Shown one piece after another: positions 11,498-64,000 of a stretch of 64,000 nucleotides of DNA (position 1 is its first letter; every line of letters starts with the position of its first letter). Location: NCBI GenBank assembly GCA_963767035.1, contig CAVYBW010000001.1, forward strand, positions 2,246,547 through 2,310,546. Reading direction: 5' to 3'. Under the pieces are notes generated by a model. The model made no database searches. It saw only the letters and a program-made list of their open reading frames with translations, and was not told the origin of the DNA. This DNA comes from an uncultured Chloroflexia bacterium. GTDB lineage: Bacteria > Chloroflexota > Chloroflexia > Chloroflexales > Herpetosiphonaceae. The position numbers were made by a program, and so were the translations under genes.

Positions 11498-11794
11498 ATT
11501 ATGAAGGATGAGGGATGAAACACAAAGAACATAAAAGGTAATAAGGCTATAGACGATTAGCTAAACGATTGATAAAGCATCCAAGATTGTTCCGATAGCT
11601 CAAAGCCAATAGCCGCTCTCTACGCCGCTGCGTTGACCTATCTTTAATTTTAAAACGAAGATTCCTCATCCCGCATCTTTCATTTATCCGCGCCGCTGCG
11701 TTAAAGCCAGATCCTCGATCCCTAATCCCTGACTCCTATTGTTATGTTCTAGACTCTCTGTTCTTCATCCTTCATCTCTCATCCTTCATCCTTA

Positions 11795-11841
11795 AAAAAA
11801 GCTTCCCCCACAAACCCGTAGGTTCATGAGGGAAGCAAGCA
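11795..11841 (-). terminator. Putative terminator downstream of nuoN.
   Basis: On the minus strand: gcttccc...gggaagc stem followed by ttttttt. Confidence 0.4.
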
Positions 11842-11851
11842 ACAATTTGAA

Positions 11852-13333
11852 TTATTGGGCGACGGTCAAAACCAAGGCTTTGGCCAAATCGGTGAAGATG
11901 TTTGGCAAAATCCCAACTGCGATAATCCCAATCACTGCGACGAGCACGCCCAGCGAGAGCGAAGCCGTGGCATGGGTTGGTCGTGACTCATTGGTTTCAG
12001 CATCACGCATCCACATCGTCACAATTACCCGCAGGTAGAAGAAGGCCGAGATCACGCTGGTCACCACCCCGATAATCGCCAGATAATCGAGATTGGCATC
12101 CCATGCAGCGCGGAAAATGCCAAACTTGCTGGCAAAACCGGCTGTTGGTGGTACGCCCGCCAACGAGAACATAAACACGGTCATCGATAGCGCCAACAGT
12201 GGGCTACGCTTGCCCAAACCACGCAGATCGTTCAATTCAAACACGGGCATGCCGCGATTTTCCAAGGCGATCAGCACAGCAAAAGCCCCAAGGTTCGTCA
12301 AGGTGTAGGCCAACAAATAGACCGTAAAGGCGCTAATGCCTTTTTCACTGCCTGCCAACACGCCCAGCAACATATAGCCAGCGTGGGCAATCGACGAATA
12401 GGCCAACATCCGCTTGAGGTTGGTTTGAGCAACTGCCACGATGTTGCCATAGGCCATAGTTGCTGCGGCAAACACGCCAAACAACAATTGCCACTCTGGC
12501 TTGAGCGCAGGGAAGGCCACATTCAAGAAACGCAACATGGCGGCAAAAGCTGCACCCTTGGTTGCAACCGACATATAGGCGGTTACTGGCGTAGGCGCGC
12601 CTTCGTAAACGTCAGGTGTCCAAGCGTGGAAGGGGAACATTGAAACCTTGAAGCCCAAGGCAATCAACACAAAGCCAACCCCTGCCAACAAAATTGGGTC
12701 ATCAAGCGACTTGCCAGTGCTTTGCCAAGCGCTCAATTCGGTGGCAATTTGGGCCAAGTTGGTCTTGCCTGTCATGCCATAAATCAAGGCAATGCCATAG
12801 ACCAAAAAGCCTGCGGCAAACCCACCAAGCAACAGATATTTAATCGCTGCTTCGCCCGATTTGAACTGTGGCACGGCAAAGCCGGTTAGCACATACAGCG
12901 CAATCGAAAGCATTTCAACCCCAATGAAGATCGTTACAAGGTCGGTTGATTGGACCAAGAACAACATCCCTGAGGTTGCAAACAGCACCAAGGGATAAAA
13001 TTCGCCTTGGTTGAGATTTTGGCGCGGCATATAGTCAAAGGCAATCAGCAAGGTCAGCGCCGTACCTGCTAGCAAAATCCAATTAACCAACACCCCAAAC
13101 TTATCAAATACCAACATATCTGAAAAGCCCGAGACTGTTAAGCCATAATCCAGCCCCCCAAGCGCCGCAGTCACGCCAAGCCCAATCAGGCTCAACGTAA
13201 TTAAAACTCGCCGATCCGAGGTAAACATATCGACAATCAAGACCAACATCGCCCAAATCATCAGGAATGCTGGCATGCCTAAGACTGTCCAGTTAATCTC
13301 CGGCGTGACAAATGGTAATGGTAATTCATTCAT
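11852..13333 (-). CDS. nuoN: NADH-quinone oxidoreductase subunit N.
   Basis: Polytopic membrane protein. Position after nuoM in a nuoIJKLMN block. Confidence 0.9.
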   Translation of the reverse strand: MNELPLPFVTPEINWTVLGMPAFLMIWAMLVLIVDMFTSDRRVLITLSLIGLGVTAALGGLDYGLTVSGFSDMLVFDKFGVLVNWILLAGTALTLLIAFDYMPRQNLNQGEFYPLVLFATSGMLFLVQSTDLVTIFIGVEMLSIALYVLTGFAVPQFKSGEAAIKYLLLGGFAAGFLVYGIALIYGMTGKTNLAQIATELSAWQSTGKSLDDPILLAGVGFVLIALGFKVSMFPFHAWTPDVYEGAPTPVTAYMSVATKGAAFAAMLRFLNVAFPALKPEWQLLFGVFAAATMAYGNIVAVAQTNLKRMLAYSSIAHAGYMLLGVLAGSEKGISAFTVYLLAYTLTNLGAFAVLIALENRGMPVFELNDLRGLGKRSPLLALSMTVFMFSLAGVPPTAGFASKFGIFRAAWDANLDYLAIIGVVTSVISAFFYLRVIVTMWMRDAETNESRPTHATASLSLGVLVAVIGIIAVGILPNIFTDLAKALVLTVAQ

Positions 13334-13351
13334 TCGAACTCACGCTCCGTC

Positions 13352-14905
13352 TTATTGGCCAGCAATTAGTGGCGCAGCATTAGCAACGAAGGCTTCAAGC
13401 GCCTTAATCGTTGTTTCCATCGGGCGAGTAAAGTATGGCGAGTAGAGACCAATCACCAACATCAAGATACATAGTGGCAAGAGGATCGCTACTTCACGCC
13501 GAGTCAAATCGCTCAGGTGTGGCGTGCGACGTTCGCTAAATGGCCCCGAAGCAATGCCTTGGAACATTTTGAGCAAATAGACCGCTGCCAAAATCACGCC
13601 AACTGCGGCAAACGCGGTAAACGTCCAGCCGATTGGCGAATCGAACGCCCCGAGCATAATTAAAAATTCGCCAACGAAGCCGTTCAAGCCAGGCAAGCCA
13701 ACTGAGGCCATCGTGGCAAACAACAGGAAGTAGACGAAGATTGGCACAACTTTCCACAAACCGCCGTAATCGGCCAATTCGCGGGTATGGGTGCGTTCGT
13801 AAATCATCCCAATCAGCAAGAACAATGCGCCAGTGCTCAACCCGTGGTTGACCATTTGCAGCACTGCGCCTTGCAAACCAACTTGATTCAGCGCGAAAAT
13901 CCCCAACACGATAAAGCCCATGTGGCTGACCGATGAATAGGCCACCAGCTTTTTGATATCGCTCTGCGCATACGACAGCACCGCGCCATAGATGATCCCA
14001 ATCACTGCTAGCACGGCAATGGGCCGCGCCCATTCTTGGGCAACTTGCGGGAACAACTGCACGCAGAAGCGAATCATGCCGTAGCCACCCATTTTCAGCA
14101 GCACTGCCGCCAGAATCACTGAGCCTGCGGTTGGCGCTTCAACGTGCGCATCGGGCAACCATGTGTGGACAGGCCACAATGGCACTTTGACCGCAAACGC
14201 CACGAAGAATGAGAGGAACAGCAATTTCAATTCGGTATCCGACAAGCCAAATTGATTGATATTGGCCATCAAGGTTTGCACTTGGAAGGCCGTATCAGTT
14301 GGCAAGCCTTGTTGCGCCAAATATTTGTAATTGAGCAAGCCCAAGGCAATAATGCCAATCAACATAAACACCGAAGCAGCAAAGGTATACAAGAAGAACT
14401 TCACTGTGGCGTAAATGCGGCGCTTGCCACCCCAAATCCCAATCAAGAAATACATTGGAATCAGGGTGAATTCCCAGAAAATATAGAACAAGAACAGGTC
14501 TTGGGCGAGAAACACGCCCAACATGCCAGTCTCTTGCAACAGAATCAGCATCAAGAAGCTGTTGGTTTTGTCTTCAACGTTCCATGCGGCCCAAATAGCC
14601 AAGGGCGTGATGAAGGTTGTGAGCAAAATCAACCACAAACTAATGCCATCAAGACCCAACTCGTAGCGCACGCCCCAATCCGGAATCCAGCTGAAATATT
14701 CGTAGAACTGAAGTCCGGCAGTATCGTGCTTGAAATTGAACAATAGTGGCAATGACACGGCAAAAACGAGTGTGCTCCAGCCCAAGGCAAAAATTCGGGC
14801 TGCTCCGCGTTGGCCGCGCATAAACGCCAGGATGATCGCACCGACGGCGGGTAAAAACACCACCAGCGATAAGATCGTAAAACCTAAGTCGTTTGTATTT
14901 GTCAA
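13352..14905 (-). CDS. nuoM: NADH-quinone oxidoreductase subunit M.
   Basis: Mrp-antiporter-like membrane subunit (517 aa). Position in the nuo operon. Confidence 0.9.
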   Translation of the reverse strand: MTNTNDLGFTILSLVVFLPAVGAIILAFMRGQRGAARIFALGWSTLVFAVSLPLLFNFKHDTAGLQFYEYFSWIPDWGVRYELGLDGISLWLILLTTFITPLAIWAAWNVEDKTNSFLMLILLQETGMLGVFLAQDLFLFYIFWEFTLIPMYFLIGIWGGKRRIYATVKFFLYTFAASVFMLIGIIALGLLNYKYLAQQGLPTDTAFQVQTLMANINQFGLSDTELKLLFLSFFVAFAVKVPLWPVHTWLPDAHVEAPTAGSVILAAVLLKMGGYGMIRFCVQLFPQVAQEWARPIAVLAVIGIIYGAVLSYAQSDIKKLVAYSSVSHMGFIVLGIFALNQVGLQGAVLQMVNHGLSTGALFLLIGMIYERTHTRELADYGGLWKVVPIFVYFLLFATMASVGLPGLNGFVGEFLIMLGAFDSPIGWTFTAFAAVGVILAAVYLLKMFQGIASGPFSERRTPHLSDLTRREVAILLPLCILMLVIGLYSPYFTRPMETTIKALEAFVANAAPLIAGQ

Positions 14906-14951
14906 GGGTTACTCCTTGTGAAGATGCAAGCCGAAGCCCGCATTCCACGTC

Positions 14952-17003: not shown

Positions 17004-17045
17004 AAGTTCTCCAGTAGACACTTCGGCAAGGTGCAAGGCCGTTGC

Positions 17046-17348
17046 CTAGCCCTTGAGCGTATTCACGTCATCAATGTTGGTGGTCTTCTTGACACGGAAA
17101 ATCGACACCAACAGCGCCAAACCGACTGCGACTTCTGCCGCAGCGACTGCAATCACAAAGAAGGTCATAATTTGGCCATCGCTCTCGGCACGTGCCCGGC
17201 TAAAAGCAATTAATGCCAAATTGGCCGAATTGAGCATCAACTCAACCGACATAAACATGATGATTACATTGCGGCGCACTAAAACACCAACGACCCCAAT
17301 CGTAAACAGAACTGCGCTCAGCAGCACATAGGCATTGGTTGAAATCAC
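17046..17348 (-). CDS. nuoK: NADH-quinone oxidoreductase subunit K.
   Basis: 100 aa with 3 TM segments. [11 protein letters not shown] motif. Confidence 0.9.
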
Positions 17349-17435
17349 GATTGGCTCTCCTCACGGGCAACCACCCGCCGACGGGTCAGCACAACTGTCC
17401 CGACTACTGCAATCAAGAGCAGAATTGAGATTGCT

Positions 17436-17870
17436 TCAAAGGGCAAAAGATAGGTACTGAAACAGCTGAGCGCTGATCGTGGTTGGGGCACCGATGTTGG
17501 TCGCATCAGCAACCGGCGCATCGATTAAGGTGGTACCACGATAGGCTACATAGCCAATCTCAGCCAATAACGCCACGCCAAGGATGAGACCAGCCGGCTT
17601 TTGCCAGCCAATTTTCTCCTCGCCAAGTTCGGCATTTTCAGCACCCAAGAGCATGATCACGAACAGGAATAGCACCATAATCGCGCCAGCATAAACCGTC
17701 ACTTGAACTGCACCGAGAAACGGCGCACGCAGCAAAAAATATAAAATGGCGACCGAGCAGAAATTCAAAATCAAAAACAGCGCACTATGCACTGCATTGC
17801 TGCTCAGCACCATTGCTAAGGCTGCCCCCACCGCCACAATGGCCGTGGTGATAAACAAAAATGTTTCCAT
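17436..17870 (-). CDS. nuoJ: NADH-quinone oxidoreductase subunit J.
   Basis: METFLFITTAIVAVGAALAMV start with GGGAG RBS. The ORF track over-extends it to 17936. Confidence 0.85.
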   Translation of the reverse strand: METFLFITTAIVAVGAALAMVLSSNAVHSALFLILNFCSVAILYFLLRAPFLGAVQVTVYAGAIMVLFLFVIMLLGAENAELGEEKIGWQKPAGLILGVALLAEIGYVAYRGTTLIDAPVADATNIGAPTTISAQLFQYLSFAL

Positions 17871-18048
17871 GGACACTCCCAGATAAAGGATGAAGGATGA
17901 GGGATGAAATTCAAACCCTGTTGGCACGCCCTTCACACTTCGGACCGTTGGCTACCTTGAAATCTAAAGTACAAACTGGGCGTTGAGAGATGCAATTCAG
18001 CCTCGATCAGCCCATCCTTCATACTTCATCCTTCACACTTCATACCTT

Positions 18049-18555: not shown

Positions 18556-18955
18556 TGGCGATTCCTTTCTCGGTGCGTGACTCCCATGGCGTTCACGCCA
18601 AAACCGCCACTGTGCGTCAAGCGGCGGTGCAATGTTATTCGAATCGGTGCCGTCGCGGGCGTGTTTATTTTATCACAATCTCTTGATAAGCCAAACAGGC
18701 TGGGACAAGGATGAGGAATGAAGGATGAGGGATGAAGAACAGACAACAGAGCACAGACCACAGAGCGAGAATTGGAGATCAGGAGTCAGAGAATCAGAAA
18801 CGCAGCCTGCGTGCAATTCGTGGATCAATGGTTAACACAGAGGCGCAGAGAGTTAGGCGGGGTCAGAATTGGACGATCAGGGGCCAGCGCTATTAAACCG
18901 ATTGTAGCCTGAGTGGATTTACCTAACCAGACCTCTGACCCCTAAACTCTAGCCA

Positions 18956-20164: not shown

Positions 20165-20312
20165 GGAGCATAATCCTTACTCATTTATTGATACTATATA
20201 TCATTATAATCGATTTTCGAATTCGTAAAACAAGATTTGACAAAAATACAAAAGCAGAGTATACTTCAGCACTGTTGAACGGCAACAATGCCCAAAACAA
20301 ACAAATCAATAA

Positions 20313-20388
20313 TCCCTGATAGCTCAGTTGGTAGAGCGGTTGACTGTTAATCAGCATGTCCTAGGTTCGAGTCCTAGTCAGGGAGCCA
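20313..20388 (+). tRNA. tRNA-Asn (GTT).
   Basis: Cloverleaf: acceptor TCCCTGA/TCAGGGA, anticodon loop CTGTTAA, encoded CCA, 76 nt. Confidence 0.9.
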
Positions 20389-20407
20389 CTTTTTTACAAA
20401 TCAATAA

Positions 20408-20483
20408 TCCCTGATAGCTCAGTTGGTAGAGCGGTTGACTGTTAATCAGCATGTCCTAGGTTCGAGTCCTAGTCAGGGAGCCA
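20408..20483 (+). tRNA. tRNA-Asn (GTT), second identical copy.
   Basis: Identical 76 nt. A 95-bp tandem duplication includes the upstream caaatcaataa leader. Confidence 0.9.
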
Positions 20484-21994: not shown

Positions 21995-22050
21995 AATGTG
22001 CGTTCCCTCACCCCCCCCAACCCCTCGCCCACTGGACGCGGGAGAGGGGA
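21995..22050. repeat. GC-rich palindromic (REP-like) element.
   Basis: tccctcaccccccccaacccctcgccc-actggacgc-gggagagggga. The same family recurs at 35851-36048. Confidence 0.7.
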
Positions 22051-22256
22051 GTTGGTAGGGTACAATCCATAGCTATTCATGCTATGAACCATTACAATTA
22101 GCCAGTAGTATTGCTATCACGATTAACTGAACGCTGATGGATGTACCGCCAGCAGGTCAGATTAGGCTGTTGGCGGAGGTTTTTTTAGCCCGAAACGATT
22201 ATCTACAAATCGCTGGAGCGCCGAATATCAACGCTTGAGCATTGGGTAGAGTAGGT

Positions 22257-25234: not shown

Positions 25235-25639
25235 GATTTCTCCTCAGACAATACATTTGATGATTTGGTTGATATTCTCAATCAACCGCTGGTACTACGT
25301 GCAATTGAAGCTTTGGTTGCGCCATCCTGGCTTCAGGCCACGATTTTTTAGCCACATATTGACACAGATTATTGGGATTATGCTTGCTGCATTAAGCCAA
25401 AGCTTGCATAACGCTGCGCTGCTGCGTTATTAATGAAATCATTTTTTAGCTCCGAATTCCACAAATTATAGTTTCATCCCTCGTACTTCACAACTCTGCA
25501 CCACTGCGTTAAACTAAAATCCGCTTTTTAGCCACGAGAATTGCCCGAATTACCCAAACCATGTTCCGATAGCCCATAGCCCTCAGCCAAAAGCCATAAC
25601 GTTCCTCATTCATCCCTCATCCTTCATCCCTATAAAAAA

Positions 25640-27790: not shown

Positions 27791-28486
27791 TCATAACTCG
27801 CCAAGTGGGGCTGCCGGATGATCTTCGCCTTCAAGATTGCCTTCGAGTTGCCAACGTACTGCGGCATGCAAATGCACAGCATCGTTGTAGCCACCCAGAA
27901 ACCAGCGCATCTGCCCACCGCGTTCATGCTGATACCAATGGGTCAACGATGTATTGGTCACTTCTAGGTCAATATTCGGTTGCTCGCTGCGGCTATGTGG
28001 CCAAAAATAACTTAACGATGATTCTATCACCCAACCATGGCAAACAATTGCAATCGTGGCATCGGGGTTGGCATTCAGCACTCGTTCAAAATTGCTGTGG
28101 GTGCGCTGGCAAAAGGTTTGCCAAGTCTCGCCACCAGGCGATAAAGGCTTGCGCAAATCAAAATCAAACTTGCCATAGCGGGCATTATATTCTTTCCAAG
28201 ACAGGCCATCGGCCTCGCCAACATTGAATTCACAAAAGGTTTCGTCGTAGATTAAGGCTTGGGCAAAGGCCGGAGCAATAATTTCGGCGGTTTGCATCGC
28301 CCGTGGCATCGTACTACAGATAAACAGATCGGGCACAATTTCCCGGGTTGCGATCAGCCGGTCGCGCAAATGCTCAGCTTGCTGCACACCCAAAGCTGTC
28401 AAGCCACGATCACCCTTAATGCCACCAATAATTGGCTCAACATTCACCACAGCCTGCCCATGGCGAATCAAATAGAGTTTAGCCAT
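27791..28486 (-). CDS. Histidine phosphatase (phosphoglycerate mutase-like) family protein.
   Basis: MAKLYLIRHGQAVVN RHG motif at the N-terminus and a catalytic His in VCHGW. The ORF track's extension to 28576 reads through the repeat array. Confidence 0.75.
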   Translation of the reverse strand: MAKLYLIRHGQAVVNVEPIIGGIKGDRGLTALGVQQAEHLRDRLIATREIVPDLFICSTMPRAMQTAEIIAPAFAQALIYDETFCEFNVGEADGLSWKEYNARYGKFDFDLRKPLSPGGETWQTFCQRTHSNFERVLNANPDATIAIVCHGWVIESSLSYFWPHSRSEQPNIDLEVTNTSLTHWYQHERGGQMRWFLGGYNDAVHLHAAVRWQLEGNLEGEDHPAAPLGEL

Positions 28487-28563
28487 AATACCCCTTTCTA
28501 CAATGATGAAGGATGAATTCTCATTCCTCAAATAATCACATCTTTTTAGAAATAAGCAAAAAT

Positions 28564-28654
28564 CCTCATCCCTCATCCCTCATCCCTCATCCCTCATCCC
28601 TCATCCCTCATCCCTCATCCCTCATCCCTCATCCCTCATCCCTCATCCCTCATC
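28564..28654. repeat. Perfect heptanucleotide microsatellite (CCTCATC)13.
   Basis: 13 uninterrupted copies. It supplies the last codons (D-E-G) and the TGA stop of proB, and lies about 80 nt upstream of the phosphatase start. Confidence 0.95.
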
Positions 28655-29752
28655 CTTAACAAAGGCCACCATATCATCGCGGTGAATCACTTCATCGCCA
28701 TAAGAATACCCAAGGATACTTTCGATATCACTGGTACGTGAGCCTTTGATTTGAGCAACTTCGTGAGCCGCATATTGGCATAAACCACAGGCAATCGCTT
28801 GACCGTCGGGGGCAACAATCGCTACAGTTTGGCCGCGTCGCCATTCGCCTTCAACCGCCACAATCCCTGCTGGCAAGAGGCTTCGGCCTTGCTGGGTTAG
28901 GGCTTGCACCGCGCCTGCATCGACCGCAATATGCGCTTGGCGCACCCGTTCAGCCATAATCCAGCGCTTGCGGCTCTCTAGGCGGGTGCTCACTGGCCGA
29001 AAACGGGTGCCAACACTCTCGCCAGCGGCCAAGCGTAGCAACACATCAGGCTCGTTGCCAGCAGCAATTACCATGGTTGTGCCAGCACGGGTCGCCAATT
29101 CGGCAGCTTGAATTTTGGTAAACATCCCGCCAGTGCCACGATGCGAGCCAGCGGCCCCAGCCAAAGCATACACCTGTTCATTCACCGCTGCCACATCGTC
29201 GATCAGCGTTGCCGCAGGGTTATGGCGTGGATCGGCGCTATACAAACCAGCAATATCACTCAAAATAACCAATAGCTGAGCGTCAACCAAATTTGCTACC
29301 AAGGCCGAGAGCGTGTCGTTATCACCGACCCGAATCTCATCGACTGCGACTGCATCGTTTTCGTTGATAATTGGCAGCACGCCAATTTCCAAGCAAGTCA
29401 ACAAGGTTGCGCGGGCATTCAGGTAGCGCACCCGATCGCGCAGATCGGCGCGGGTCAGCAAGGTTTGAGCAACTGGCACATCGTAAATTTCAAATAATTG
29501 GCCATAGATATGCATTAAACGGCCTTGACCAACTGCCGCCAGCGCCTGCTTGTGGGTCAGCTCGCGTCGCCGCTTGGGGAAGCCTAAGCGCTCCCAGCCT
29601 GCTAAAACCGCACCTGAAGAAACCAACACGACTTCATGGCCAACAGAGCGCAACTGCGCCATCTGGCGGGCCAAATCGACCATGCGCGGGCGATGCAAAC
29701 GGTCGGTGCCATCGGTCAAAACGCTCGTGCCAAGTTTAATTACAATTCGCAT
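28643..29752 (-). CDS. proB: Glutamate 5-kinase with a C-terminal PUA domain.
   Basis: MRIVIKLGTSVLT amino-acid-kinase N-terminus, and 369 aa in total. Confidence 0.9.
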   Translation of the reverse strand: MRIVIKLGTSVLTDGTDRLHRPRMVDLARQMAQLRSVGHEVVLVSSGAVLAGWERLGFPKRRRELTHKQALAAVGQGRLMHIYGQLFEIYDVPVAQTLLTRADLRDRVRYLNARATLLTCLEIGVLPIINENDAVAVDEIRVGDNDTLSALVANLVDAQLLVILSDIAGLYSADPRHNPAATLIDDVAAVNEQVYALAGAAGSHRGTGGMFTKIQAAELATRAGTTMVIAAGNEPDVLLRLAAGESVGTRFRPVSTRLESRKRWIMAERVRQAHIAVDAGAVQALTQQGRSLLPAGIVAVEGEWRRGQTVAIVAPDGQAIACGLCQYAAHEVAQIKGSRTSDIESILGYSYGDEVIHRDDMVAFVKDEG

Positions 29753-29840: not shown

Positions 29841-30085
29841 TTTAAAACCACGAAGAGCACGAAGGGCACGAAGAACGAAACCGCGAAGCACACGAAGATC
29901 GCGAAGGCTGAATTTTTTAGCCACAGATGATCACTGATGAGAATGATGGATAAACCTAGCATTGGCCGATTAGGTATTGGGTTTCATCCCTCATAATTCA
30001 TCCTTCATCCTTATTTTCTGCCTTTTGATTTTGCCTTTTGTCTTCTCTTATGTTCTATGCTCTTTGCTCTATGTTCTTAAAGCAA
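29841..30085. repeat. Mosaic intergenic repeat built from modules B (CACGAAG), A (TCATCC) and D (TTTTGCCTTTTG).
   Basis: accacgaagagcacgaagggcacgaag...tttcatccctcataattcatccttcatcc...ttctgccttttgattttgccttttgtc. The same modules recur at 25440-25640, 33951-34240 and elsewhere. Confidence 0.8.
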
Positions 30086-33919: not shown

Positions 33920-33950
33920 AATTCCTCCAACAATCAATTCTCAAGTTGAT

Positions 33951-34240
33951 CCACGAAGGGTACGAAGGGCACGAAGGCTGGCGATGGGCTATAGGCAGAA
34001 GGCTATTGGGAATATGGTTGAGCCACGCATTCCACGAATTATGGTTCTATTCCCAAAACTTGAAAATTTATACCTCTGCACCTTTGCGTTGAAGGTTTGA
34101 TCCACGAATTATGTTGATTATGTTCCAATAGCCGATAGCCTTCAGCCAAAAGCCCTCTGTTCTATGTTCTATTTTACCTTCTGATTTTGCCTTCTGACTT
34201 TAATCTTCATCCCACATAATTCATCCTTCATACTTTCAAG
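33951..34240. repeat. Mosaic intergenic repeat (modules B, C, D and A).
   Basis: gatccacgaagggtacgaagggcacgaagg; ccaatagccgatagccttcagccaaaagcc; ttctgattttgccttctgac; cttcatcccacataattcatccttcat. Confidence 0.8.
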
Positions 34241-35843: not shown

Positions 35844-35850
35844 GATTCCC

Positions 35851-36048
35851 TCACCCCCAACCCCTCGCCCAGGCTATGGGCGAGGGGCTTTTTCGTTCCG
35901 TGGTATTGCCATGCACCATGTACGCCACAGGTGCTCCCCCTCGCCCGCGTTCAGTGGGAGAGGGGGCTGGGGGGGTGAGGGAATCTCTGGAAACTCCCCC
36001 TCGCCCGCGTCCAGTGGGAGCGGGGGCTGGGGGGTGAGGGAACCACAC
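35851..36048. repeat. Three tandem GC-rich palindromic REP-like elements.
   Basis: ccctcacccccaacccctcgccc-loop-gggcgagggg units, each a long hairpin. They lie between convergent NmrA and rhodanese gene ends. Confidence 0.8.
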
Positions 36049-40669: not shown

Positions 40670-40680
40670 AACTCACCAAT

Positions 40681-41120
40681 ATCCGATCCACGAAGGACAC
40701 AAAGAGCACGAAGAATTACTATTTGATCCACGAAGGACACAAAGAGCACGAATGGTTGGCTCTTGCGATCTGTAAAATTCATAGGCAATTAACATGGTGA
40801 TTGTGAATTTAACGAACTAAGCGTTTCCATTCCAACTTGCCAAGACTGCCGAACTTAATCAATAGCCCAACCCGAAGTTGCACCAACTCCAATGCAAGGG
40901 CTTCTTGATAAACAGCCTCTAAGAACCCACTACCCAACTCGCGATGAACCTCAATTGCAGCCCCTACAATCGCGAACACTTCATCTGCCAAAAGAATCGT
41001 TGCCATCCACGCCTCCCAAAAATAGTTAGTTGGTTCCAAATTACTAGATACACAAACCAACTATTTTTGGGATGACACAAAAAACATGCTTCGTGTCCTT
41101 CGTGCTCTTCGTGAATCAAA
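40681..41120. mobile_element. Putative MITE-like insertion carrying a GxxExxY ORF, bounded by inverted module-B repeats.
   Basis: The left end has 2x gatccacgaaggacacaaagagcacgaa (40685-40752). The right end, 41091-41118, is the reverse complement built from the same words (ttcgtgtccttcgtgctcttcgtgaatc). It sits in the 454-bp sufS-sufD spacer. Confidence 0.4.
40809..41060 (-). CDS. GxxExxY-family protein, short form (N-terminal part only).
   Basis: GFLEAVY matches the G-x-x-E-x-x-Y signature. 83 aa, shorter than typical family members. Confidence 0.5.
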
Positions 41121-41123
41121 TCG

Positions 41124-42321
41124 TTAGACTTTTTCGGCGACAATCGTTTCGACCCGTTCGCGCACAGCTTCGTCGGGAATCATATCGATGATTTCGCCGA
41201 CAAAGCCCAACACGATCGTGCGCTTGGCTTCGGCAAAAGGCAAACCGCGCGATTGCAGATAGAACAACTGCTCAGCATCGATTTGGCCGCTAGTCGAGCC
41301 GTGACCAGCCTTAACTTCGTTGGCATCAATCTCCAAGCCTGGAATTGAATCCGAGCGTGAAGTGTTGCTCAAGTGCAAGGCATTCTCGCGCAAGTCGGAG
41401 TTCGTGCCTTGACCGCTAGCAGGAATCTTGACCATGCCATCAAAAACAGCATAGGCTTCATCATCAACCACGGTTTTGAAGTTAATTTGGCCTTCGGTAT
41501 TCAAGCCAATGTGGTTGAGCTTGGGGGCAACCAGCAAGTTTTGCTTGCCATTGCCATACAACAAGCCGTTCCAATTGACGCTTGAGCCGTTGCCGCTCAA
41601 ATTGGCTTCCAAGGTGACGTGCTGCACAGCGCTCCCAACGACGACATTCAGCCATTCGGCTTGGGCATCGCGGTTGATGCGAATTTGTTGGCTGCCCAAC
41701 ATATACACATTGCGGTTTAAAATTTGCACGCTGCTGAAGTTTAACTTTGCCACCATCGCCAACTTCGATTTCAGCGCCAGTCAAGAAGACGGCACTAGCG
41801 TCAAAATCAGCTGAGCTAATTTCTTCGATCACATTGATCGAGCTATGACGCTCAGTCACGATCAAGGTGCGAGGAGCGACAATTGTGCCAGCATTCGCCA
41901 CGTGATAGCGAATTCGCACTAATTCGTCAACCACAACATCTTTGGCAACGTGGATGAAAATCCCACCGTTAACCAAGGCATTGTTGAGCGCCGAATATGG
42001 ATCGCGGCTAGTTTGCACAGCGCTACCAAGCACCCGTTGCACCAACTCGGCATGGCTCTGAATTGCTTCGGCCAAAGGCAAAATTGTTACGCCTTCAGCG
42101 CCAGCGAATTCAACTGAAACATCAGCTTCAGCCACGCTGTAATCGGCAATATTGAAGCCCTTCAAGTTGGTTCGGCGCCACTCAGGTTGCTCAGCGGTTT
42201 CAAAGGCGTCCCAAGCTTCGCGGCGGCGGGTGGTTAGCCACTCTGGCTCGTTGCGGCTGGCCAGCAAGGCCTCAAATTGCGCCACATCAAAGGTAGATTG
42301 CAAATTAGCTGGCATTGCCAA
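41124..42321 (-). pseudogene. sufD: Fe-S cluster assembly protein SufD, frameshifted near 41760-41810.
   Basis: The N-terminal ORF 42321-41482 and C-terminal ORF 41762-41124 overlap in different frames. The C-terminal frame carries conserved SufB/D motifs (HLSNTSRSDSIPGLEIDANEVKAGHGSTSGQIDAEQLFYLQSRG). Confidence 0.6.
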
Positions 42322-54325: not shown

Positions 54326-54342
54326 TTTGTAACGAGGCAGTT

Positions 54343-59367: not shown

Positions 59368-59377
59368 AGTTGTAGTT

Positions 59378-59417
59378 CAAACACGGTGCAAGCTACGTTT
59401 GGCTCGCACCGTGTTTG
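59378..59417. terminator. Hairpin between convergent genes (putative bidirectional terminator).
   Basis: caaacacggtgc...gcaccgtgtttg 11-12 bp stem. Confidence 0.45.
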
Positions 59418-59420
59418 TGT

Positions 59421-61787
59421 TTAATCAAGTTGAATTTGCAAATTCAAACTCTCATCTGTTTCAAGCTGTAACGTCGCCACACGCTGCACTGAATCGTAGC
59501 TCGCACCAACCAACGTTGCTGCACTTGCGGCGCTGATGCCATGAATGCGAAGCTGAAGCTTGCGCGAGTCAGGCCTAAAATCGCCCTCACGCAACGAACT
59601 GTGAACCGTCAGGGTTTGTTGATCAAGGCTAATTTGATAGGTGATCAGTGCTGATTTACCTTGTTGATACTCAAAACTCACACCATCATCTTCATACAAA
59701 CTGAACGAACCATTGCCCGGATAACACTCCAAGTTCAGGCTCGCGGATACTTGACCTGTGTGTTGGCTCCTGGCTGAGCCAAATGGCAAGATGCTGCCAG
59801 CCCGCACATACAAGGGCATGCGTTCGAGAGGTGCATCAGCCAACAAATGTGTTGGGCCTTCAATTAACTCGTTTGTCCACCAATCGTACCACTGGCCAGC
59901 TGGCAAATAGACATGGCGCTGAGTTTTGCCCGGCTGATAGATCGGCGCAGCCAAGAGTGCCGAGCCAAGCATCACCTGATCATGCAATTGATAGGTCGCG
60001 GGATCGTTGGGAAATTCATACAGCAATGGCCGCAAAATTGGCGCAGCATCGTGCGAACTTTGCCAAAACAGCGTGTACAAATAGGGCAATAATTGATAGC
60101 GCAACTGCAAATATTGGCGACAAATTGCCTCGACTTCAGGGCCAAATTGCCAAGGCTCATGCGGCGCGGTATCGGTGTGGGAGTGGCCGCGACAAAATGG
60201 CATCAGAATGCCAAATTGCATCCAGCGCGCAAATAATTCAGGGCTAGCGTTATCGAAAAAGCCACCAATATCGGTGCCAACAAATGGCACGCCCGAAAGC
60301 CCCATATTGACCAATTGCGAGATCGCTAGCTCTAAATGCTCCCAGCGCGAGGCATTATCGCCCATCCAGCAGGCACTCCAGCGCTGAATCCCAGCATAGC
60401 CCGAGCGAGTCAGCACAAACGGGCGTTGGTTGCTGGCCTCGCGGATGCCTGCATAGGCCGCTTGCGCCATGCCCAAGCCATACAAATTATGCATTTCGGC
60501 GTGGGTTGTACGCTCGTTCTCTGGGCCTTGAATTGCATCAAGCTCGATTGGATGCGGCGTGCTGCCACCTTGGCTAAAGGGCATGGTAAACACCGTTGGC
60601 TCGTTCATATCGTTCCAGATGCCACTGATGCCAATTTCGATCAGGCGGCGTTGCATGCTTGCCCACCAAGCCTGCACATCGGGGCGGCTAAAATCGGGAA
60701 AGACCGAATCGTCGGGCCAAACATAGCCATGAAAAATCTCACCATTGGCGCGGCGAATAAAGCTGTTGTGCTCAAGCCCTGAATGATAGACTGCATACTC
60801 GGGATCGATTTTGACCCCTGGATCGACAATATTGACCAAGCGAATCTGTTGCTCAGCCAAATCCTGCACCATTGCCGCTGGATCAGGGAAGCGCTGCGGG
60901 TTCCAAGTAAAATCGCGATAGCCATCCATATGGTCAATATCAAGGTGAATCACATCACATGGTAATTGGCGTTGGCGAAATTCTTGGGCTAGTTGGCGAA
61001 TTTGGGTTGCCGAATTGTAGCCCCAGCGGCTTTGATGATAGCCCAAGGCCCAGCGCGGTGGCAGTGGCGTTGTGCCAAGCAAGCGCCCAAACGATTGCAA
61101 TACCTCGGCAGGCGTTGGCCCAAAACAAAGGTAATAATCAAGTTCGCCGCCATCAATGCTCATGCTCCAAGTATTTGGGTTTTCTACGCCAATATCAAAG
61201 CGGCTATGCCATGTATTATTCAAAAACACGCCATAGGCTAAGCCTTGACGCAGCGCCAAAAAACTGGGAATCGCAATATACAAGGGATCGGTACCAGGTG
61301 CGTAGCGATGCTGATCGGTTGTCCAGTTGGTGCGGGTCAGGCCACGCTGGTTGAGTTGGCCTGAACGTTCGCCAAACCCATAAAAAAACTCTTGGGGATG
61401 TAACTGCTTGCGGCACGTTATCGAGCTATGAGTATCCGACCAGCTTAATCCTTCGGCATCGCTGCAAAACTGCTGATCGTCAGCGGTGTAGAAACTCATT
61501 CGGCCTGTGCTACGCTCAATTTTCAGGGTCAGTTTGGCCGTGCGCAACACCAAGCCTTGTTCGGTCTCGCTGAGCGTCGTATCAACTGGGGTAAAGTCGG
61601 CATCGGGTGCAACCACCGCCCACGAACGACGCTTGGCAAAACGGCCATCAGGTGCTAAACGCAGCCGAATAATCGTATCGCTTAATATGCTAATGGCTAC
61701 CTTTGGGCCGCCATACTCTAACATCAACGTTTGCGCACCGTGATCATACGATTGCAACACAGTTAACGATTGCGAAAGAATGGGCAT
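59421..61787 (-). CDS. Glycoside hydrolase family 31 alpha-glucosidase.
   Basis: Catalytic nucleophile motif GIWNDMNEP and acid/base region WMGDN. Start MPILSQS (the ORF track extends to 61862). Confidence 0.85.
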   Translation of the reverse strand: MPILSQSLTVLQSYDHGAQTLMLEYGGPKVAISILSDTIIRLRLAPDGRFAKRRSWAVVAPDADFTPVDTTLSETEQGLVLRTAKLTLKIERSTGRMSFYTADDQQFCSDAEGLSWSDTHSSITCRKQLHPQEFFYGFGERSGQLNQRGLTRTNWTTDQHRYAPGTDPLYIAIPSFLALRQGLAYGVFLNNTWHSRFDIGVENPNTWSMSIDGGELDYYLCFGPTPAEVLQSFGRLLGTTPLPPRWALGYHQSRWGYNSATQIRQLAQEFRQRQLPCDVIHLDIDHMDGYRDFTWNPQRFPDPAAMVQDLAEQQIRLVNIVDPGVKIDPEYAVYHSGLEHNSFIRRANGEIFHGYVWPDDSVFPDFSRPDVQAWWASMQRRLIEIGISGIWNDMNEPTVFTMPFSQGGSTPHPIELDAIQGPENERTTHAEMHNLYGLGMAQAAYAGIREASNQRPFVLTRSGYAGIQRWSACWMGDNASRWEHLELAISQLVNMGLSGVPFVGTDIGGFFDNASPELFARWMQFGILMPFCRGHSHTDTAPHEPWQFGPEVEAICRQYLQLRYQLLPYLYTLFWQSSHDAAPILRPLLYEFPNDPATYQLHDQVMLGSALLAAPIYQPGKTQRHVYLPAGQWYDWWTNELIEGPTHLLADAPLERMPLYVRAGSILPFGSARSQHTGQVSASLNLECYPGNGSFSLYEDDGVSFEYQQGKSALITYQISLDQQTLTVHSSLREGDFRPDSRKLQLRIHGISAASAATLVGASYDSVQRVATLQLETDESLNLQIQLD

Positions 61788-61901
61788 ATCACTGTGCTCC
61801 TCAAAGGGTTGGCATTGCCAATTGAGTTCAAAAATACGACAGGAAATGGAGCAGCGCCCCACTTCCTGTGCTGAAACTTTGCTGGATTGCTCAGATTAAA
61901 C

Positions 61902-63764
61902 TTACCAGCCACGATTGCCTGTAGCTTTGGTGAGGGTGAATTGCCCGGGCAATGGGTTGGAGATCAGCCCATTTTGGCCTGGATTAATCACCGTCACATT
62001 GCCAAACTCGGCACTCCCTTGGGCGCTGGTGCTGAGCAAAATTCCAGCGGTAGCAGGATTGGTGATGGTAATATTGTGCAGGGAAATTGCCTGTAGTTTG
62101 GCTGAACCCTGCAAATGAATGCCAGCAAAGGTTGGGCTATCGATCAGTAAATCGTTAACCACCACGCCTTGCACCACGCCTTCGGCAGCGTGCAGCTTAA
62201 ACGCGCCATGCTCTTGATTCCACATCGATCCACCAGCCCGAATTAACGAATTGCGTTCGATCTGAATTGTGCCCGAAAATGGATGCGATTTGAATTGTTG
62301 GGCAATCAGAATCCCTGGGTAGGTCACCACATCGGCACAGATGTTATCTTCGATCCGAATATCTTTACCACCATAGACAGCTAAACAATTAGCCCGCCAT
62401 GGCACTTGAATCGTATTGAAGCGAAAAACGTTGTTGGTGTTGAGGCCACCGTCGAAGGCAGGTGACCACGAGGCCAAAGCATCGTCGCCAGTATTGCGAA
62501 AATGCGAGTTCTCGACCACTGAGTTGCTGCTGCCATTACAAAGGTTCACGCCATCGGCAAATAGGTTGCGAAAACGACTATTGCGAATCACCAAACCATC
62601 GGTGACGTTTTTATCGCCCTCGCCAACCCACCAGCCAACTTTGGTATGCTCAACCCAAACGTTTTCCAACAGCGAATCTTTGCCCGCGCCGCCGTTGAAG
62701 GCATTTTCAGGGTTAGAATCCTGACGGGTTTGGGTTGCGCCAATAATTGCCAAATCGTGAAAGCGACAGCGATCGCCAGTGCAATAAAACCTGGCCCACG
62801 GCCCGCGCACCTGCGAATACCACATGCCAGCGCCGCGAATCGTCAGATTGGCAACGGGCATGCCCATGCGTTGGCTGGCTGGCGAAAGCAAATCAAAACT
62901 ACCAACAGGAACCCACAGCCCTTGACCAGCTGCTTGAGCTTGGTCAATACAGGCTTCGAAAGCGGCGCGATCATCACGTTGATCGTCGGCAATCGCCCCA
63001 CAATCGGCGGTTAATGAGATAAAGCCTGCTGGTTGCTCAAGCGCCGGGCCAACCAATTCCAGATCAAGCAGATCGATCACATAAAAGTCGGCTTGATCAT
63101 CAGCATCTTTTTGCAATTTCAAGCGTGAACCAGCGGGAATTTCGCCAACCAATGCGCGTACTTCATCGAAAAAGGCGTGCCCGCCACCAGATCCGGGATG
63201 ATTATCGGTGGCTGTCGCTCCGCCATACACCCACGCAAAGCGCGATGTCAACGGCAATTTTTGGCGAAATACATCATCGACATACAAACTCAAGGTTGCG
63301 CTGATCCCGCCGCCTTGAGGCGCATCGGGAATCGCATAGCGCACCACCAGCGAGTTTGCCGCTGCGGTCGTGGTAATTTGAATATACTGACCATGCGCTT
63401 TCAGTTCAACGCTTTGCCGCCCAGACGATTCAGCTGCTAGCGTGCCAAACTCGCGACTAGGGCCAAGGATTGTGGCCTTGCCGGTTCCATGTTCAGCCTC
63501 GTATTCCTGCCATGGCACGTTCGCACCGCGTTGTGGCGGCGTAACACTGGTGGCAGTCATCAGTTGATTGGTTGGCGCTGCTGGTACAGGCGTGCTGGCC
63601 GCAATTTGTGATTGATCACTGCTTGCAATCCATAAGCGTGTGATTAACCCAGCGCTGATTACCAGTAGTAGGAGCATAAGCAGCTGTTTTGGTTGGCGCA
63701 ACCTCGTAAGGATGCTCACATGCGTTCCTCCTCGAACACAGGCTGGGAGCTTCGCCAGAAGCAA
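61902..63764 (-). CDS. Secreted right-handed parallel beta-helix (pectate-lyase-fold) protein.
   Basis: N-terminal TM/signal LLMLLLLVISAGLITRLWIA. Repeated NxxxxN/VxNS coils (IRNSRFRN, VENSHFRN, IEDNICADV). Confidence 0.6.
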   Translation of the reverse strand: MLLAKLPACVRGGTHVSILTRLRQPKQLLMLLLLVISAGLITRLWIASSDQSQIAASTPVPAAPTNQLMTATSVTPPQRGANVPWQEYEAEHGTGKATILGPSREFGTLAAESSGRQSVELKAHGQYIQITTTAAANSLVVRYAIPDAPQGGGISATLSLYVDDVFRQKLPLTSRFAWVYGGATATDNHPGSGGGHAFFDEVRALVGEIPAGSRLKLQKDADDQADFYVIDLLDLELVGPALEQPAGFISLTADCGAIADDQRDDRAAFEACIDQAQAAGQGLWVPVGSFDLLSPASQRMGMPVANLTIRGAGMWYSQVRGPWARFYCTGDRCRFHDLAIIGATQTRQDSNPENAFNGGAGKDSLLENVWVEHTKVGWWVGEGDKNVTDGLVIRNSRFRNLFADGVNLCNGSSNSVVENSHFRNTGDDALASWSPAFDGGLNTNNVFRFNTIQVPWRANCLAVYGGKDIRIEDNICADVVTYPGILIAQQFKSHPFSGTIQIERNSLIRAGGSMWNQEHGAFKLHAAEGVVQGVVVNDLLIDSPTFAGIHLQGSAKLQAISLHNITITNPATAGILLSTSAQGSAEFGNVTVINPGQNGLISNPLPGQFTLTKATGNRGW

Positions 63765-63939
63765 TCGGCAATTGGAAACGCTGACGGGGTTATTAAATCA
63801 ATTCTATCCCGCAGTCGCTCAGGAAGATTATGGCTTGGCTGTGAGTATAGACAGTTGTGCTGGGTTTAGCGTTCAAATAGCGTTCAAAGATAGAACAACG
63901 AAGGTAGAGCATCCATGGCTGCTATGCACTATCGGAACA

Positions 63940-64000
63940 TTGTGTGGCAGCTCAATAATTCCGATAGCCAACAGCCCATAGCCCTTCTTGTCCTTCGTGG
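63940..64000. repeat. Partial mosaic intergenic repeat (modules C and B) at the window edge.
   Basis: ccgatagccaacagcccatagccc followed by ttcttgtccttcgtgg. Confidence 0.6.

Follow-up and report, generated by a model that had tools for sequence, protein, structure and literature searches.

Ordered mosaics of short tandem arrays in the non-coding DNA of a Herpetosiphon species

Results

The window (the whole 64-kb stretch of DNA that was analysed) belongs to a Herpetosiphon species whose Lon protease is 99% identical to that of H. giganteus. Non-coding DNA makes up 10.3% of it, and the spacers studied lie next to genes such as lon, nuoN, nuoI, nuoJ, merR, proB, secA and sufS. A Pfam search across nearly all called ORFs detected no transposase or integrase domain in the window, in agreement with a previous sequence-only reading of this DNA, and no Y1 transposase or RAYT was found there; for four genes in positions 1 to 9000, the domain check rests solely on the annotation of orthologues. 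The census covers this window and about 20 short loci. Six other Herpetosiphon genomes, located through the module A pattern alone, were then used to compare composites.

Modules and composites

The sequence-only reading had proposed a modular family of intergenic repeats, with four modules named A to D, and all four are present at or near the places where it had put them, far above chance. Its description was incomplete, however: each module consists of short units (7, 9 or 13 nt) repeated in tandem, period 7 being the dominant repeat period in the window, and further modules (E, G, H and L2) exist. Module A consists of a 7-nt TCATCCY unit; searched as TCATCCYTCATCC with at most one mismatch, it gave 27 matches versus 0.09 expected, and its longest array comprises 13 perfect units (28566-28655), an array that reads (GGGAUGA)13 on the mRNA. 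Module B, made of 9-nt CACGAAGRN and CGCGAAGRN units, gave 12 matches versus 0.04 expected with at most two mismatches, and related CGCGAAG/CACGAAG arrays occupy 3556-3571 and 3725-3740. For module C, a 7-nt NNNAGCC unit, the strict pattern is found at 25573 and 34132 only; the site previously claimed at 33976 is a reverse-complement array (GGCTAT...), and a looser NNNAGCC heptamer array (family D6) occurs at 11588, 25562, 34121 and 63957. Module D has a 13-nt unit of 7+6 build (TTTTGCC-TTCTGA) and matches, with at most one mismatch, at 30016-30041 and 34172-34197, plus one chance-like match within a gene.

The additional modules include two of 7 nt, E (TATGYTC or CTCTGTK) and G (GATCCCY), as well as H (CACAGATT or CACGAATT, with a 9-nt unit form CACAGATTN), while L2 (CTCTGCGCCTCTGCGTTAA) is a low-copy word joining arrays. 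The shared linker words noticed previously do recur, and only outside genes: L1 (TTTTAGCCAC) and CTGC[GA]C..TGCGTT three times each, CCACGAATTATG twice. Arrays and a few linker words together form composites of 150-300 bp (Table 1), which represent about 29% of the non-coding DNA of the window when composite coordinates are summed.

Table 1. Repeat arrays, linker words and associated features in the window
Feature	Position	Strand	Remark
Module A matches	11506, 11765-11791, 17888-17907, 18019, 18709-18735, 25610-25629, 28504, 28566-28655, 29998, 34221		at most one mismatch
Module B matches	29849-29906, 33952-33976, 40689-40753, 41089-41113, 63984-63999		at most two mismatches
B-type nonamer array AACCGCGAAGCACACGAAG	3537-3571	+	copy 1 of 169-179-nt tandem duplication; family D8
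B-type nonamer array AACCGCGAAGATCGCGAAGACCACGATG	3706-3748	+	copy 2 of 169-179-nt tandem duplication
Left arm of palindromic composite: A array as GGATGA, E-type units	11496-11531	-	directly after Lon terminator hairpin
C array, NNNAGCC heptamers	11588-11614	+	family D6
Two L2-type words (..CGCCGCTGCGTT..)	11617-11702	+	
Right arm: E units, then A array (TCATCCY)	11736-11793	+	ends at nuoN terminator hairpin
A array (GGATGA on + strand)	17882-17908	-	nuoI-nuoJ intercistronic spacer
A array, inverted partner of 17882-17908	18013-18048	+	pair conserved in H. giganteus
A array and E-type heptamers (CTCTGTK)	18707-18766	-	A outer end about 10 nt upstream of nuoI -35 box
TCTGA-type units, L3 and L2 linker words	18767-18852	-	same half-composite as 18707-18766
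Half-composite: L1, L2, L1-like, L2, L1, C (25562-25595), A (25609-25631)	25346-25631	+	ends about 17 nt upstream of merR promoter
Short inverted partner of long A array	28504-28517	-	partner at 28564-28655
A array, 13 perfect CCTCATC units	28564-28655	+	between proB stop and next gene
B array: CACGAAG, then CGCGAAG nonamers	29849-29906	+	
L1 word, then degenerate GGATGA-type arm	29915-29957	+	arm itself in - orientation
A (29978-30012), D (30013-30041), E (30045-30079)	29978-30079	+	block ends at secA terminator hairpin
B array with TTGATC leader	33947-33977	+	about 12 nt from NUDIX ORF start
C array reversed (GGCTAT...)	33980-34016	-	left arm of C hairpin
Linker words: CCACGAATTATG twice, L2 (CTCTGCACCTTTGCGTT)	34024-34113	+	
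C (34121-34154), E, D (34167-34202), A (34205-34233)	34121-34233	+	
Two B arrays, GATC leader on each	40680-40753	+	upstream of sufS; family D2
Internally deleted PDDEXK_3 (GxxExxY) gene remnant	40809-41060	-	enclosed by inverted B arrays
B array, inverted partner of 40680-40753	41089-41113	-	96% complementary to 29849-29873
C array (+), then reverse-orientation B array	63957-64000	.	B array cut by window end

Placement relative to genes

The sequence-only reading had held that equal occurrence inside coding DNA would speak against such a family. In the window, tandem forms of at least two units are all non-coding (A 20/20, B 12/12, C 5/5), and period-7 coverage reaches 38-58 per mille in non-coding DNA versus 0.6 per mille in coding DNA. 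A and B have the form of long simple-sequence repeats, a short unit repeated head-to-tail beyond chance length, and units that are not a multiple of 3 are kept out of coding DNA in the window. With gene starts corrected, the array at 17882-17908 falls upstream of nuoJ and is not intragenic, and the one at 28564-28655 occupies the spacer that separates proB from its neighbour, which truly starts at 28485. Gene callers run ORFs into arrays at 28576 and 17936, so that repeat-aware annotation is needed.

Spacers of every type hold arrays, including those inside operons, and many long spacers of the window have none. Composites occupy the unconstrained part of a spacer, adjoining conserved terminators and promoters, and A arrays adjoin the -35 regions of nuoI and merR. 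A role as transcription terminators, suggested previously, is not supported: the GC-rich hairpins of the actual terminators adjoin the arrays and are not part of them, and terminator-like sites (GC-rich stem and T run) are not enriched (12 versus 13.2 expected). Rfam models at gathering score recovered only tRNAs and Acido-Lenti-1, all away from arrays.

Grammar and polarity

The modules had been described as varying in order and orientation. Inverted A, B and C pairs do exist in the window, but a preferred order and orientation emerged: across the genus, modules follow the succession B, L1/H, C, L2, G/E/D, A, with a common orientation for all. Considering the window and the six other Herpetosiphon genomes, B is 5' of A and in the same orientation in all 10 composites that contain both. 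The outer leader, TTGATC followed by CACGAAG, is conserved, as is the outer end, TCATCCTT. GAAGG-type units are placed 5' of CCTTC-type units in the six window composites (6/6) containing both; since the 5' half consists of purine-rich GAAGG-type arrays headed by B, and the 3' half of CCTTC-type arrays ending in A, a composite amounts to a large imperfect palindrome or to half of one. The palindromic composite at 11496-11793 has 49-nt arms that are 78% complementary.

Comparison with relatives

Comparison across related genomes, proposed in the sequence-only reading, gave a two-sided answer: the module vocabulary is genus-wide, but the module content of orthologous spacers differs between species. 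These spacers retain their terminators, promoters and 5' UTRs (the flank of nuoI is 99-100% identical), and it is within the composites that homology with H. giganteus is interrupted. A 99.2% identical strain carries the same arrays, and array copy number varies between relatives. The inverted A pair of the nuoI-nuoJ spacer, within the operon, is kept between species (93%). Non-repetitive linkers are common to many loci and many species, which points to descent by copying. No target-site duplications were found in the flanks of the window elements.

Hairpins outside Herpetosiphon

A elements are found in at least 12 bacterial phyla and in viral contigs; outside Herpetosiphon, B hairpins were seen in viral contigs only, with a G+C content of 30% to 74%. 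Inverted pairs have a single polarity: 63 A pairs are arranged as GGATGA..TCATCC versus 1 in the opposite arrangement, and 26 B pairs as CACGAAG..CTTCGTG versus 0, while permuted-unit controls gave 2 versus 3, and 0. Each hairpin arm consists of direct tandem repeats and is not palindromic on its own. Loops range from 14 to 236 nt and are unrelated between loci of one viral contig, contrary to the prediction of simple whole-element copy-paste; two adjacent hairpins at another locus (L055) have related loops. Target-site duplications beyond chance are absent among these hairpins (none for 51 of 61 A hairpins, 0-1 nt for 25 of 29 B hairpins).

A hairpins in other taxa lie at a median of 15 nt past a stop codon. 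In other phyla, some A elements are in frame and translated as part of a protein: a hairpin inside MnmG (mnmG), and arrays inside PriA (priA) and the inter-domain linker of CarA (carA). An identical hairpin-encoded peptide, KDEGGR.KDE...SSFIPHPSSF, is found in unrelated ORFs of two phyla, one of them mnmG. Viral contigs also contain many arrays of permuted heptamers (58 stretches), so that finding A arrays elsewhere is by itself weak evidence.

Discussion

We propose, with a probability of roughly one half, that the composites are mosaic non-coding repeat elements, genus-wide in Herpetosiphon, that are selfish or neutral, copied between loci and remodelled by slippage. Copying would involve small palindromic or mosaic units, would proceed without a cut-and-paste transposase of the kind that leaves target-site duplications, and would place new copies into or beside existing ones. 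Replication slippage and unequal recombination within arrays may then remodel them quickly, and they would persist where sequence is unconstrained, that is, after a gene's conserved terminator and ahead of the promoter or 5' UTR of the next gene. Against this reading, neither a copying event nor a mobilising enzyme came to light in the material compared. The different module sets of orthologous spacers argue against locus-specific regulation, and any function of the composites is probably secondary: once transcribed, inverted A arrays could form long stems by pairing in the spacer between nuoI and nuoJ and in the one downstream of proB. Alternatively, selection for function could explain why species with about 90% DNA identity have kept a common module vocabulary.

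A more speculative reading, which we put forward tentatively, is that A and B are local forms of two undescribed classes of horizontally spreading, repeat-armed palindromic elements, of the forms 5'-(RGGATGA)n-loop-(TCATCCY)n-3' and 5'-(CACGAAGRN)n-loop-(NYCTTCGTG)n-3'. Their fixed polarity and unrelated loops would be consistent with a mechanism so far undescribed in bacteria: a DNA break might gain tandem units at both of its 3' ends prior to rejoining, or a mobilising enzyme might act on single-stranded DNA. Herpetosiphon would then be a genome where many such unit families piled up, nested into ordered mosaics.

The arrays might also be pure microsatellites, each having arisen and grown in place by polymerase slippage favouring 7-nt units, with no copying between loci. 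Heptamers are described as the dominant long simple-sequence repeat and slippage has been proposed as the cause (Mrazek 2007, via PMC4679880; PMC4692102), and this accepted explanation agrees with the dominance of period 7, with units grading into variants inside a single array, with the variable copy number and with the permuted heptamer arrays of viral contigs. However, units, non-repetitive linkers, order and polarity are shared by many loci and many species, conservation extends to the TTGATC leader, A and B inverted pairs have a single polarity that controls lack, and unrelated ORFs of two phyla encode the same peptide. We regard purely local growth as unlikely.

A function at the DNA level, with the arrays bound by a nucleoid-associated or architectural protein or serving as insulators between transcription units and upstream of promoters, appears quite improbable to us. 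The genus-wide vocabulary, the A arrays abutting the nuoI and merR -35 regions, the large share of non-coding DNA and the arithmetic of three heptamers (21 bp, or two helical turns) would suit it; against it, orthologous spacers hold different modules, arrays are present in every spacer type, even inside operons, yet missing from many long spacers, and no candidate binding protein was found.

Still more doubtful is a role in RNA, with transcribed inverted arrays forming long stems as processing, stability or termination signals, and the purine arm (ARGGAUG)n, in which every frame contains AUG and UGA, serving as repeated Shine-Dalgarno-like or CsrA-like sites. The conserved nuoI-nuoJ pair inside its operon and the position of A hairpins just after stop codons elsewhere favour it, as does the match of ARGGAUG to the core of the CsrA SELEX consensus. 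The RNA folding suggested by the sequence-only reading did predict long-range stems, but with modest z-scores (-1.7 and -2.8). Moreover, transcription of several composites is improbable, given their location upstream of promoters or between a pair of convergent terminators; terminator-like sites are not enriched, no Rfam family matches the arrays, and B units are devoid of such signals.

Classical MITEs, non-autonomous derivatives of a DDE insertion sequence mobilised in trans via terminal inverted repeats, would account for the inverted arms, the 70-300 bp size range, the many copies and the related loops of the two L055 hairpins, but this reading is largely refuted by the lack of target-site duplications, and the window without transposase, the heterogeneous interiors and the asymmetry of most Herpetosiphon composites (B at one end, A at the other, no flanking terminal inverted repeats) make it highly implausible. 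The earlier label of REP/MITE-like elements is fair as a description, given ordered modules, inverted pairs and palindrome-like A and B forms in many other genomes (viral contigs for B); it fails on the defining tests, namely target-site duplications, individually palindromic arms and a transposase in the window.

The composites matter because homology between Herpetosiphon species is interrupted at them, which designates them as a main driver of intergenic change and as useful strain-typing markers. Their ordered grammar and strict purine-to-pyrimidine polarity are unexplained by simple slippage and point to an uncharacterised copying or repair process. If A and B hairpins in and beyond Herpetosiphon share one mechanism, they would constitute a class of small selfish DNA with unusual promiscuity.

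Comparison with known systems

The closest parallels in array structure are heptanucleotide repeats (the cyanobacterial STRR of Calothrix/Nostoc, GGGAATC of Xanthomonas, TAACTGA of Beggiatoaceae), which are likewise overwhelmingly intergenic tandem heptamers, in which a genome carries several types of unit and now and then an inverted pair, and in which length and sequence vary between close relatives within conserved flanks. None of CCCCAGT, TTGGTCA, CAACAGT (STRR1-3), TAACTGA, GGGAATC and GGGGATT is found in tandem in the window. In contrast to these systems, Herpetosiphon strings together units of many types, 9- and 13-nt units among them, with fixed linkers, order and polarity; we know of no description of such ordered multi-unit strings with fixed linkers for STRR-type repeats.

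The composites also recall the bacterial interspersed mosaic elements (BIMEs) of enterobacteria, reportedly described by Gilson and colleagues in 1991: both are dispersed intergenic mosaics, combining a small vocabulary of motifs in order, between genes and inside operons. The building blocks of BIMEs are palindromic units (REPs), whereas those of Herpetosiphon are direct tandem repeats. Rickettsia palindromic elements, said to have been reported by Ogata and colleagues in 2000, resemble the A hairpin of mnmG and the A arrays of priA and carA in being in frame and translated, a likeness limited to other phyla, as no array lies within any gene of the window. They are not known beyond a single genus, nor are their arms known to be tandem repeats.

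REPINs, which go with RAYT transposases (PMC3116915), share with our elements the inverted hairpin doublets, the absence of classical target-site duplication and the restriction to extragenic space; their clusters arise as palindromic doublets insert into or beside existing elements (PMC3116915). REPIN arms, however, are imperfect palindromes and not tandem heptamers or nonamers around loops of such variable length, and REPINs co-evolve with a lineage-specific RAYT, whereas the same A arms are found across many phyla.

Repeat modules and their location

The family is real, strongly non-random and genus-wide. The four modules described in the sequence-only reading, A (TCATCCY), B (CACGAAGRN or CGCGAAGRN), C (NNNAGCC) and D (TTTTGCC-TTCTGA), lie where it placed them and occur far above chance: the window holds 27 matches to module A where 0.09 are expected, 12 to module B (0.04 expected) and 5 to module D (0.55 expected). 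For module C, there are 2 matches to the strict pattern, and 4 copies of the looser NNNAGCC array. Each module is in turn made up of short units repeated in tandem, as Tandem Repeats Finder and lag analysis reveal. Near-perfect repeats of period 7, 9 and 13 make up 38 to 58, 19 to 23 and 7 to 12 per mille of non-coding DNA, respectively, versus 0.6, 0.8 to 2 and 0.2 per mille of coding DNA, whose own periods are multiples of three only.

The non-coding share of the window is 10.3%. With a curated gene list, all tandem forms of at least two units proved to be non-coding (20 of 20 for A, 12 of 12 for B, 5 of 5 for C and 3 of 3 for E), so that the placement of the modules outside genes, also proposed from the sequence alone, is borne out. 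Two apparent overlaps with genes are due to ORF calling: the true start of nuoJ is downstream of the A array at 17882-17908, and the 13-unit A array is intercistronic because the histidine-phosphatase gene starts at 28485. By the sum of their coordinates, the composites (module strings 150 to 300 bp in length) account for about 1.9 kb out of 6.6 kb of non-coding sequence. The Pfam scan of nearly all called ORFs of the window, in which the domain content of four genes in 1-9000 was judged from orthologue annotation only, revealed no transposase or integrase domain in the scanned ORFs, and the earlier statement that the window has no transposase gene can be upheld.

The G+C content of the window is about 50%. 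Its Lon protease is 99% identical to the Herpetosiphon giganteus enzyme and 98% identical to the H. gulosus and H. aurantiacus enzymes; DNA identity is 86 to 92% with H. giganteus, and 99.2% with the metagenome contig L001. An exact-protein look-up for further orthologous loci found no protein on record identical to SufC or Lon of the window. Among other features of the region are a perfect tandem duplication whose unit carries tRNA-Asn(GTT), both gene copies being identical, and two genes, nuoJ and sufD, that each look split over two reading frames. The nuoJ region has an 87-nt gap before nuoK, and SufBD_N and SUFBD_core of sufD are on overlapping ORFs; these splits are either assembly frameshift errors or pseudogenes.

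Modules, inverted pairs and other features (window coordinates unless a compared locus is named)
Feature	Unit	Coordinates	Remarks
Module E	TATGYTC or CTCTGTK		
Module G	GATCCCY		
Module H	CACAGATT or CACGAATT		
Linker L2	CTCTGCGCCTCTGCGTTAA		
Inverted A pair		11496-11531 and 11736-11793	
Inverted A pair		17882-17908 and 18013-18048	nuoI-nuoJ spacer, intra-operon
Inverted A pair		28504-28517 and 28564-28655	
Inverted B pair		40680-40753 and 41089-41113	
Inverted C pair		33980-34016 and 34121-34154	
lon		9003-11435	
Post-lon spacer		11436-11851	compared with L003, L006, L008
nuoJ		17349-17936	looks split
sufD		41124-42321	looks split
tRNA-Asn duplication	95 nt	20301-20483	
GC-rich repeat	93 nt	3587-3679 and 3766-3858; L006 about 4440-4530	hairpins GGGGGATGAAAACCCCC and CCCTCCGGCGGAGGG
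GC-rich palindromes	CCCTCACCCC..CCCCTCGCCC-loop-GGGAGAGGGG..TGGGGGTGAGGG	21995-22060; 35844-36040; L003 4845-4885; L006 12850-12945; L073	convergent spacers
sufD-sufS interval		40670-41123	
PDDEXK_3 remnant		40809-41060	minus strand
Four-helix-bundle gene		L022 2923-3322; L119	genome contigs

Order, polarity and inverted pairs

Modules were annotated in the window and in the Herpetosiphon loci of six other genomes (H. aurantiacus DSM 785, H. geysericola, H. llansteffanensis, strain NSE202, H. giganteus and H. gulosus), several loci being found only via the A pattern. In a common orientation, the preferred order is B (CACGAAGRN, then CGCGAAGRN), L1/H, C (often as a C hairpin), L2, G/E/D and A, where L1 and L2 are low-copy linker words, and E, G and H further array modules. 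All 10 composites holding both A and B in one orientation have B 5' of A, and a single case has them in opposite orientations. The outer end of B is a conserved leader, TTGATC followed by CACGAAG, and that of A is TCATCCTT. One rule covers composites and inverted pairs alike: GAAGG-core units occupy the 5' half and CCTTC-core units the 3' half, as in 6 of the 6 window composites that hold both and in the five inverted pairs of the window. As this arrangement reads identically on both strands, it is a true polarity. RNA fold prediction suggests that the inverted A arrays, once transcribed, pair with each other (z-scores -1.7 and -2.8), and such pairing may be a secondary effect.

Remodelling between related genomes

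The spacer between the acyltransferase and SIR2 genes measures 400 nt in the window, 627 in H. giganteus, 123 in an H. aurantiacus-like genome and 122 in H. gulosus. CACGAAG-type nonamers are present in all four, and the rest of the spacer is built differently. In the spacer that follows lon, the four genomes use one vocabulary and assemble it differently each time. This spacer is also a synteny breakpoint: lon is followed by nuoN in the window and H. giganteus, and by an AAA_15 ATPase gene in H. gulosus and the H. aurantiacus-like genome, where a NUDIX gene precedes the ATPase gene. A repeat composite is found at this breakpoint in every genome compared. Within the cobW-nuoI spacer, the window and H. 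giganteus show 99 to 100% identity over the 160 nt adjoining nuoI; farther from this gene the sequence is fully reshuffled, the boundary being the end of the A array. More generally, BLAST homology to H. giganteus begins and ends inside composites.

A relative with 97% SecA identity has kept B arrays beside the conserved proB promoter and the NUDIX 5' region, and is devoid of the A, D and E arrays of the window. In the strain with 99.2% identity, the arrays differ by one substitution only. Remodelling therefore takes place on the time scale of species rather than strains. The intra-operon A pair between nuoI and nuoJ is conserved at 93%. A more distant family member (71% SecA identity, 50% G+C) carries a different set of heptamers (GAACAAA, CTATGCC and CTATGAT), and a relative with 66% G+C has no heptamers in 459 nt of non-ORF sequence.

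Two GC-rich families are present as well. A 93-nt repeat with two hairpins, present in the window as a tandem duplicate and conserved in H. giganteus, gave only sub-threshold matches to the Clostridiales-2 RNA (25.6 and 19.6 bits, the gathering score being 58.6). The other family is made up of dispersed palindromes with a terminator- or REP-like look, located in convergent spacers and sometimes embedded in repeat composites.

A and B hairpins outside Herpetosiphon

A scan for three A units in one genome per species (596 Gb) returned at least 119 stretches, as against about 4 expected by our own calculation from base composition. The 80 listed A titles include Acidobacteriota, Planctomycetota, Cyanobacteriota, other Chloroflexota, Bacteroidota, Verrucomicrobiota, Armatimonadota, Hydrogenedentes, Ignavibacteriota, Nitrospirota and others; among the matches listed, Herpetosiphon accounts for 6 of these 80 titles, and by module content for 8 of 119 A loci. 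Viral contigs hold at least 120 stretches of A, 104 of B and 29 of C. Permuted units were frequent as well (58 stretches for the control heptamer, 19 for the nonamer), which indicates that tandem heptamers of any sequence are common, and that presence elsewhere is weak evidence.

It is arrangement, not presence, that sets A and B apart from the control units. Inverted A pairs are of the type GGATGA..TCATCC in 63 cases and of the opposite type in 1, inverted B pairs of the type CACGAAG..CTTCGTG in 26 cases and of the opposite type in none, while the permuted-unit controls gave 2 versus 3, and 0. A hairpins of this kind, two inverted arrays around a loop, are found across many phyla as well as in viral contigs; the B hairpins are from viral contigs. 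Their loops, 14 to 236 nt long, are mostly unrelated, even within one viral contig; the genome contig L055 carries two adjacent hairpins with related loops. No target-site duplication was found at A and B hairpins, and no Rfam family matched in 18 hairpin loci or in the window repeats. Of 54 elements, 17 carry a variant unit, GGCGGA, in one arm and 3 carry it in both. This variant removes a TGA codon, so that one reading frame stays open; its apparent restriction to the left arm was rejected, being an artefact of orienting elements on the perfect arm.

A hairpins are mostly intergenic, with a median distance of 15 nt from the preceding stop codon. One lies in-frame inside MnmG of a Chthonomonadaceae genome (L035), and another, in a Blastocatellia genome, falls within a 268-aa ORF that lacks annotation; the two encode nearly the same peptide (KDEGGR.KDE...SSFIPHPSSF). 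In-frame A arrays also stand just before the PriA helicase domain (SSFILH, L039) and in the CarA inter-domain linker (L058). Contigs from outside Herpetosiphon hardly ever carry both A and B (0 of 111, 2 of 120 and 0 of 104 loci), and modules B to L3 (L3 being another linker word) accompany A in Herpetosiphon loci only, which makes the mosaic grammar genus-specific. In BLAST searches of plasmids, the A arm matched only a few sequences, from cyanobacteria and Thiodictyon; the composite against plasmids and the B arm against phages gave no match, probably because of low-complexity masking. Several heptamer types stand side by side in other phyla too (L012, L017, L028, L048): a Flavobacteriaceae genome has eight CAACAAT units with GGTCTTA and TCATCCT, and TAGGTGG arrays adjoin TCATCC arrays in one Spartobacteria genome and one cyanobacterium.

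Between sufD and sufS, the inverted B arrays of the window enclose an internally deleted PDDEXK_3 (GxxExxY) gene, cargo-like within the B hairpin. Elsewhere, a gene for a four-helix bundle of the 23S rRNA intervening-sequence protein family was noted on two genome contigs, in L022 directly beside an A array. A tblastn search of 460 loci led us to reject a link of the repeats to either gene: of 104 viral B loci, a single one had PDDEXK_3, at a distance of 3 kb from its array, and neither these loci nor those of other Herpetosiphon genomes showed the gene enclosed by B arrays; four-helix-bundle genes were found in 2 of 119 A loci versus 3 of 77 control loci.

Origin of the composites

We give about an even chance (0.5) to the composites being explained by the copying of small palindromic or mosaic units together with slippage. 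The units would nest beside one another, as elements do in REPIN clusters (PMC3116915), through a copying mechanism that leaves no target-site duplication, and slippage would generate the tandem arrays, the graded unit variants and the changes in copy number. Slippage, which is the accepted cause of the heptamer excess of bacteria (PMC4679880, PMC4692102), could be proposed as the sole origin of the repeats, and it does account for their tandem nature, graded variants and copy-number changes. However, shared linkers, order, polarity, the conserved leader and the fixed-polarity A and B pairs of unrelated genomes are beyond slippage alone, and point to the copying of nesting units.

The composites lie beside terminators and promoters. 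The one downstream of lon lies exactly between the lon and nuoN terminator hairpins, and that downstream of secA abuts the secA terminator hairpin; A arrays upstream of nuoI and merR end about 10 to 17 nt before the -35 box, and B arrays are found 12 to 33 nt ahead of the start codons of NUDIX and sufS. Locus-specific regulation by composites might be considered, but the elements are non-coding, evolve fast and occupy unconstrained sequence, with different sets in orthologous spacers, which argues against it. A function as promoters, or as the transcription terminators suggested at first, was rejected, since consensus scans for both showed no enrichment over shuffled sequence.

Comparison with known repeat systems

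A full-text search of the literature, as far as its incomplete coverage extends, found no description of Herpetosiphon composites or of A/B hairpins, and literal DNA and peptide strings of the repeats returned nothing relevant. A 'mobile promoter' has been reported for H. aurantiacus (PMC3488235). In the window, STRR1-3, TAACTGA, GGGAATC and GGGGATT have no tandem occurrence, and the cyanobacterial word HIP1 occurs only twice. Membership in the STRR family was rejected as the units differ. The likeness to REP or MITE elements seen in the sequence-only reading survives in part: inverted pairs and the preferred order and orientation of the modules speak for it, but the arms are not palindromic, which excludes membership in REP/REPIN, and target-site duplications are lacking, which excludes membership in MITEs.

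The repeats, with their ordered grammar and strict polarity, belong among known kinds of bacterial repeat DNA, and their connection with the hairpins of other phyla and of viral contigs is worth further attention. The nearest systems are heptanucleotide simple-sequence repeats (cyanobacterial STRR, GGGAATC of Xanthomonas and TAACTGA of Beggiatoaceae), as well as REPINs and the BIMEs of enterobacteria, the likeness to Rickettsia palindromic elements being limited to the in-frame A copies of other phyla.
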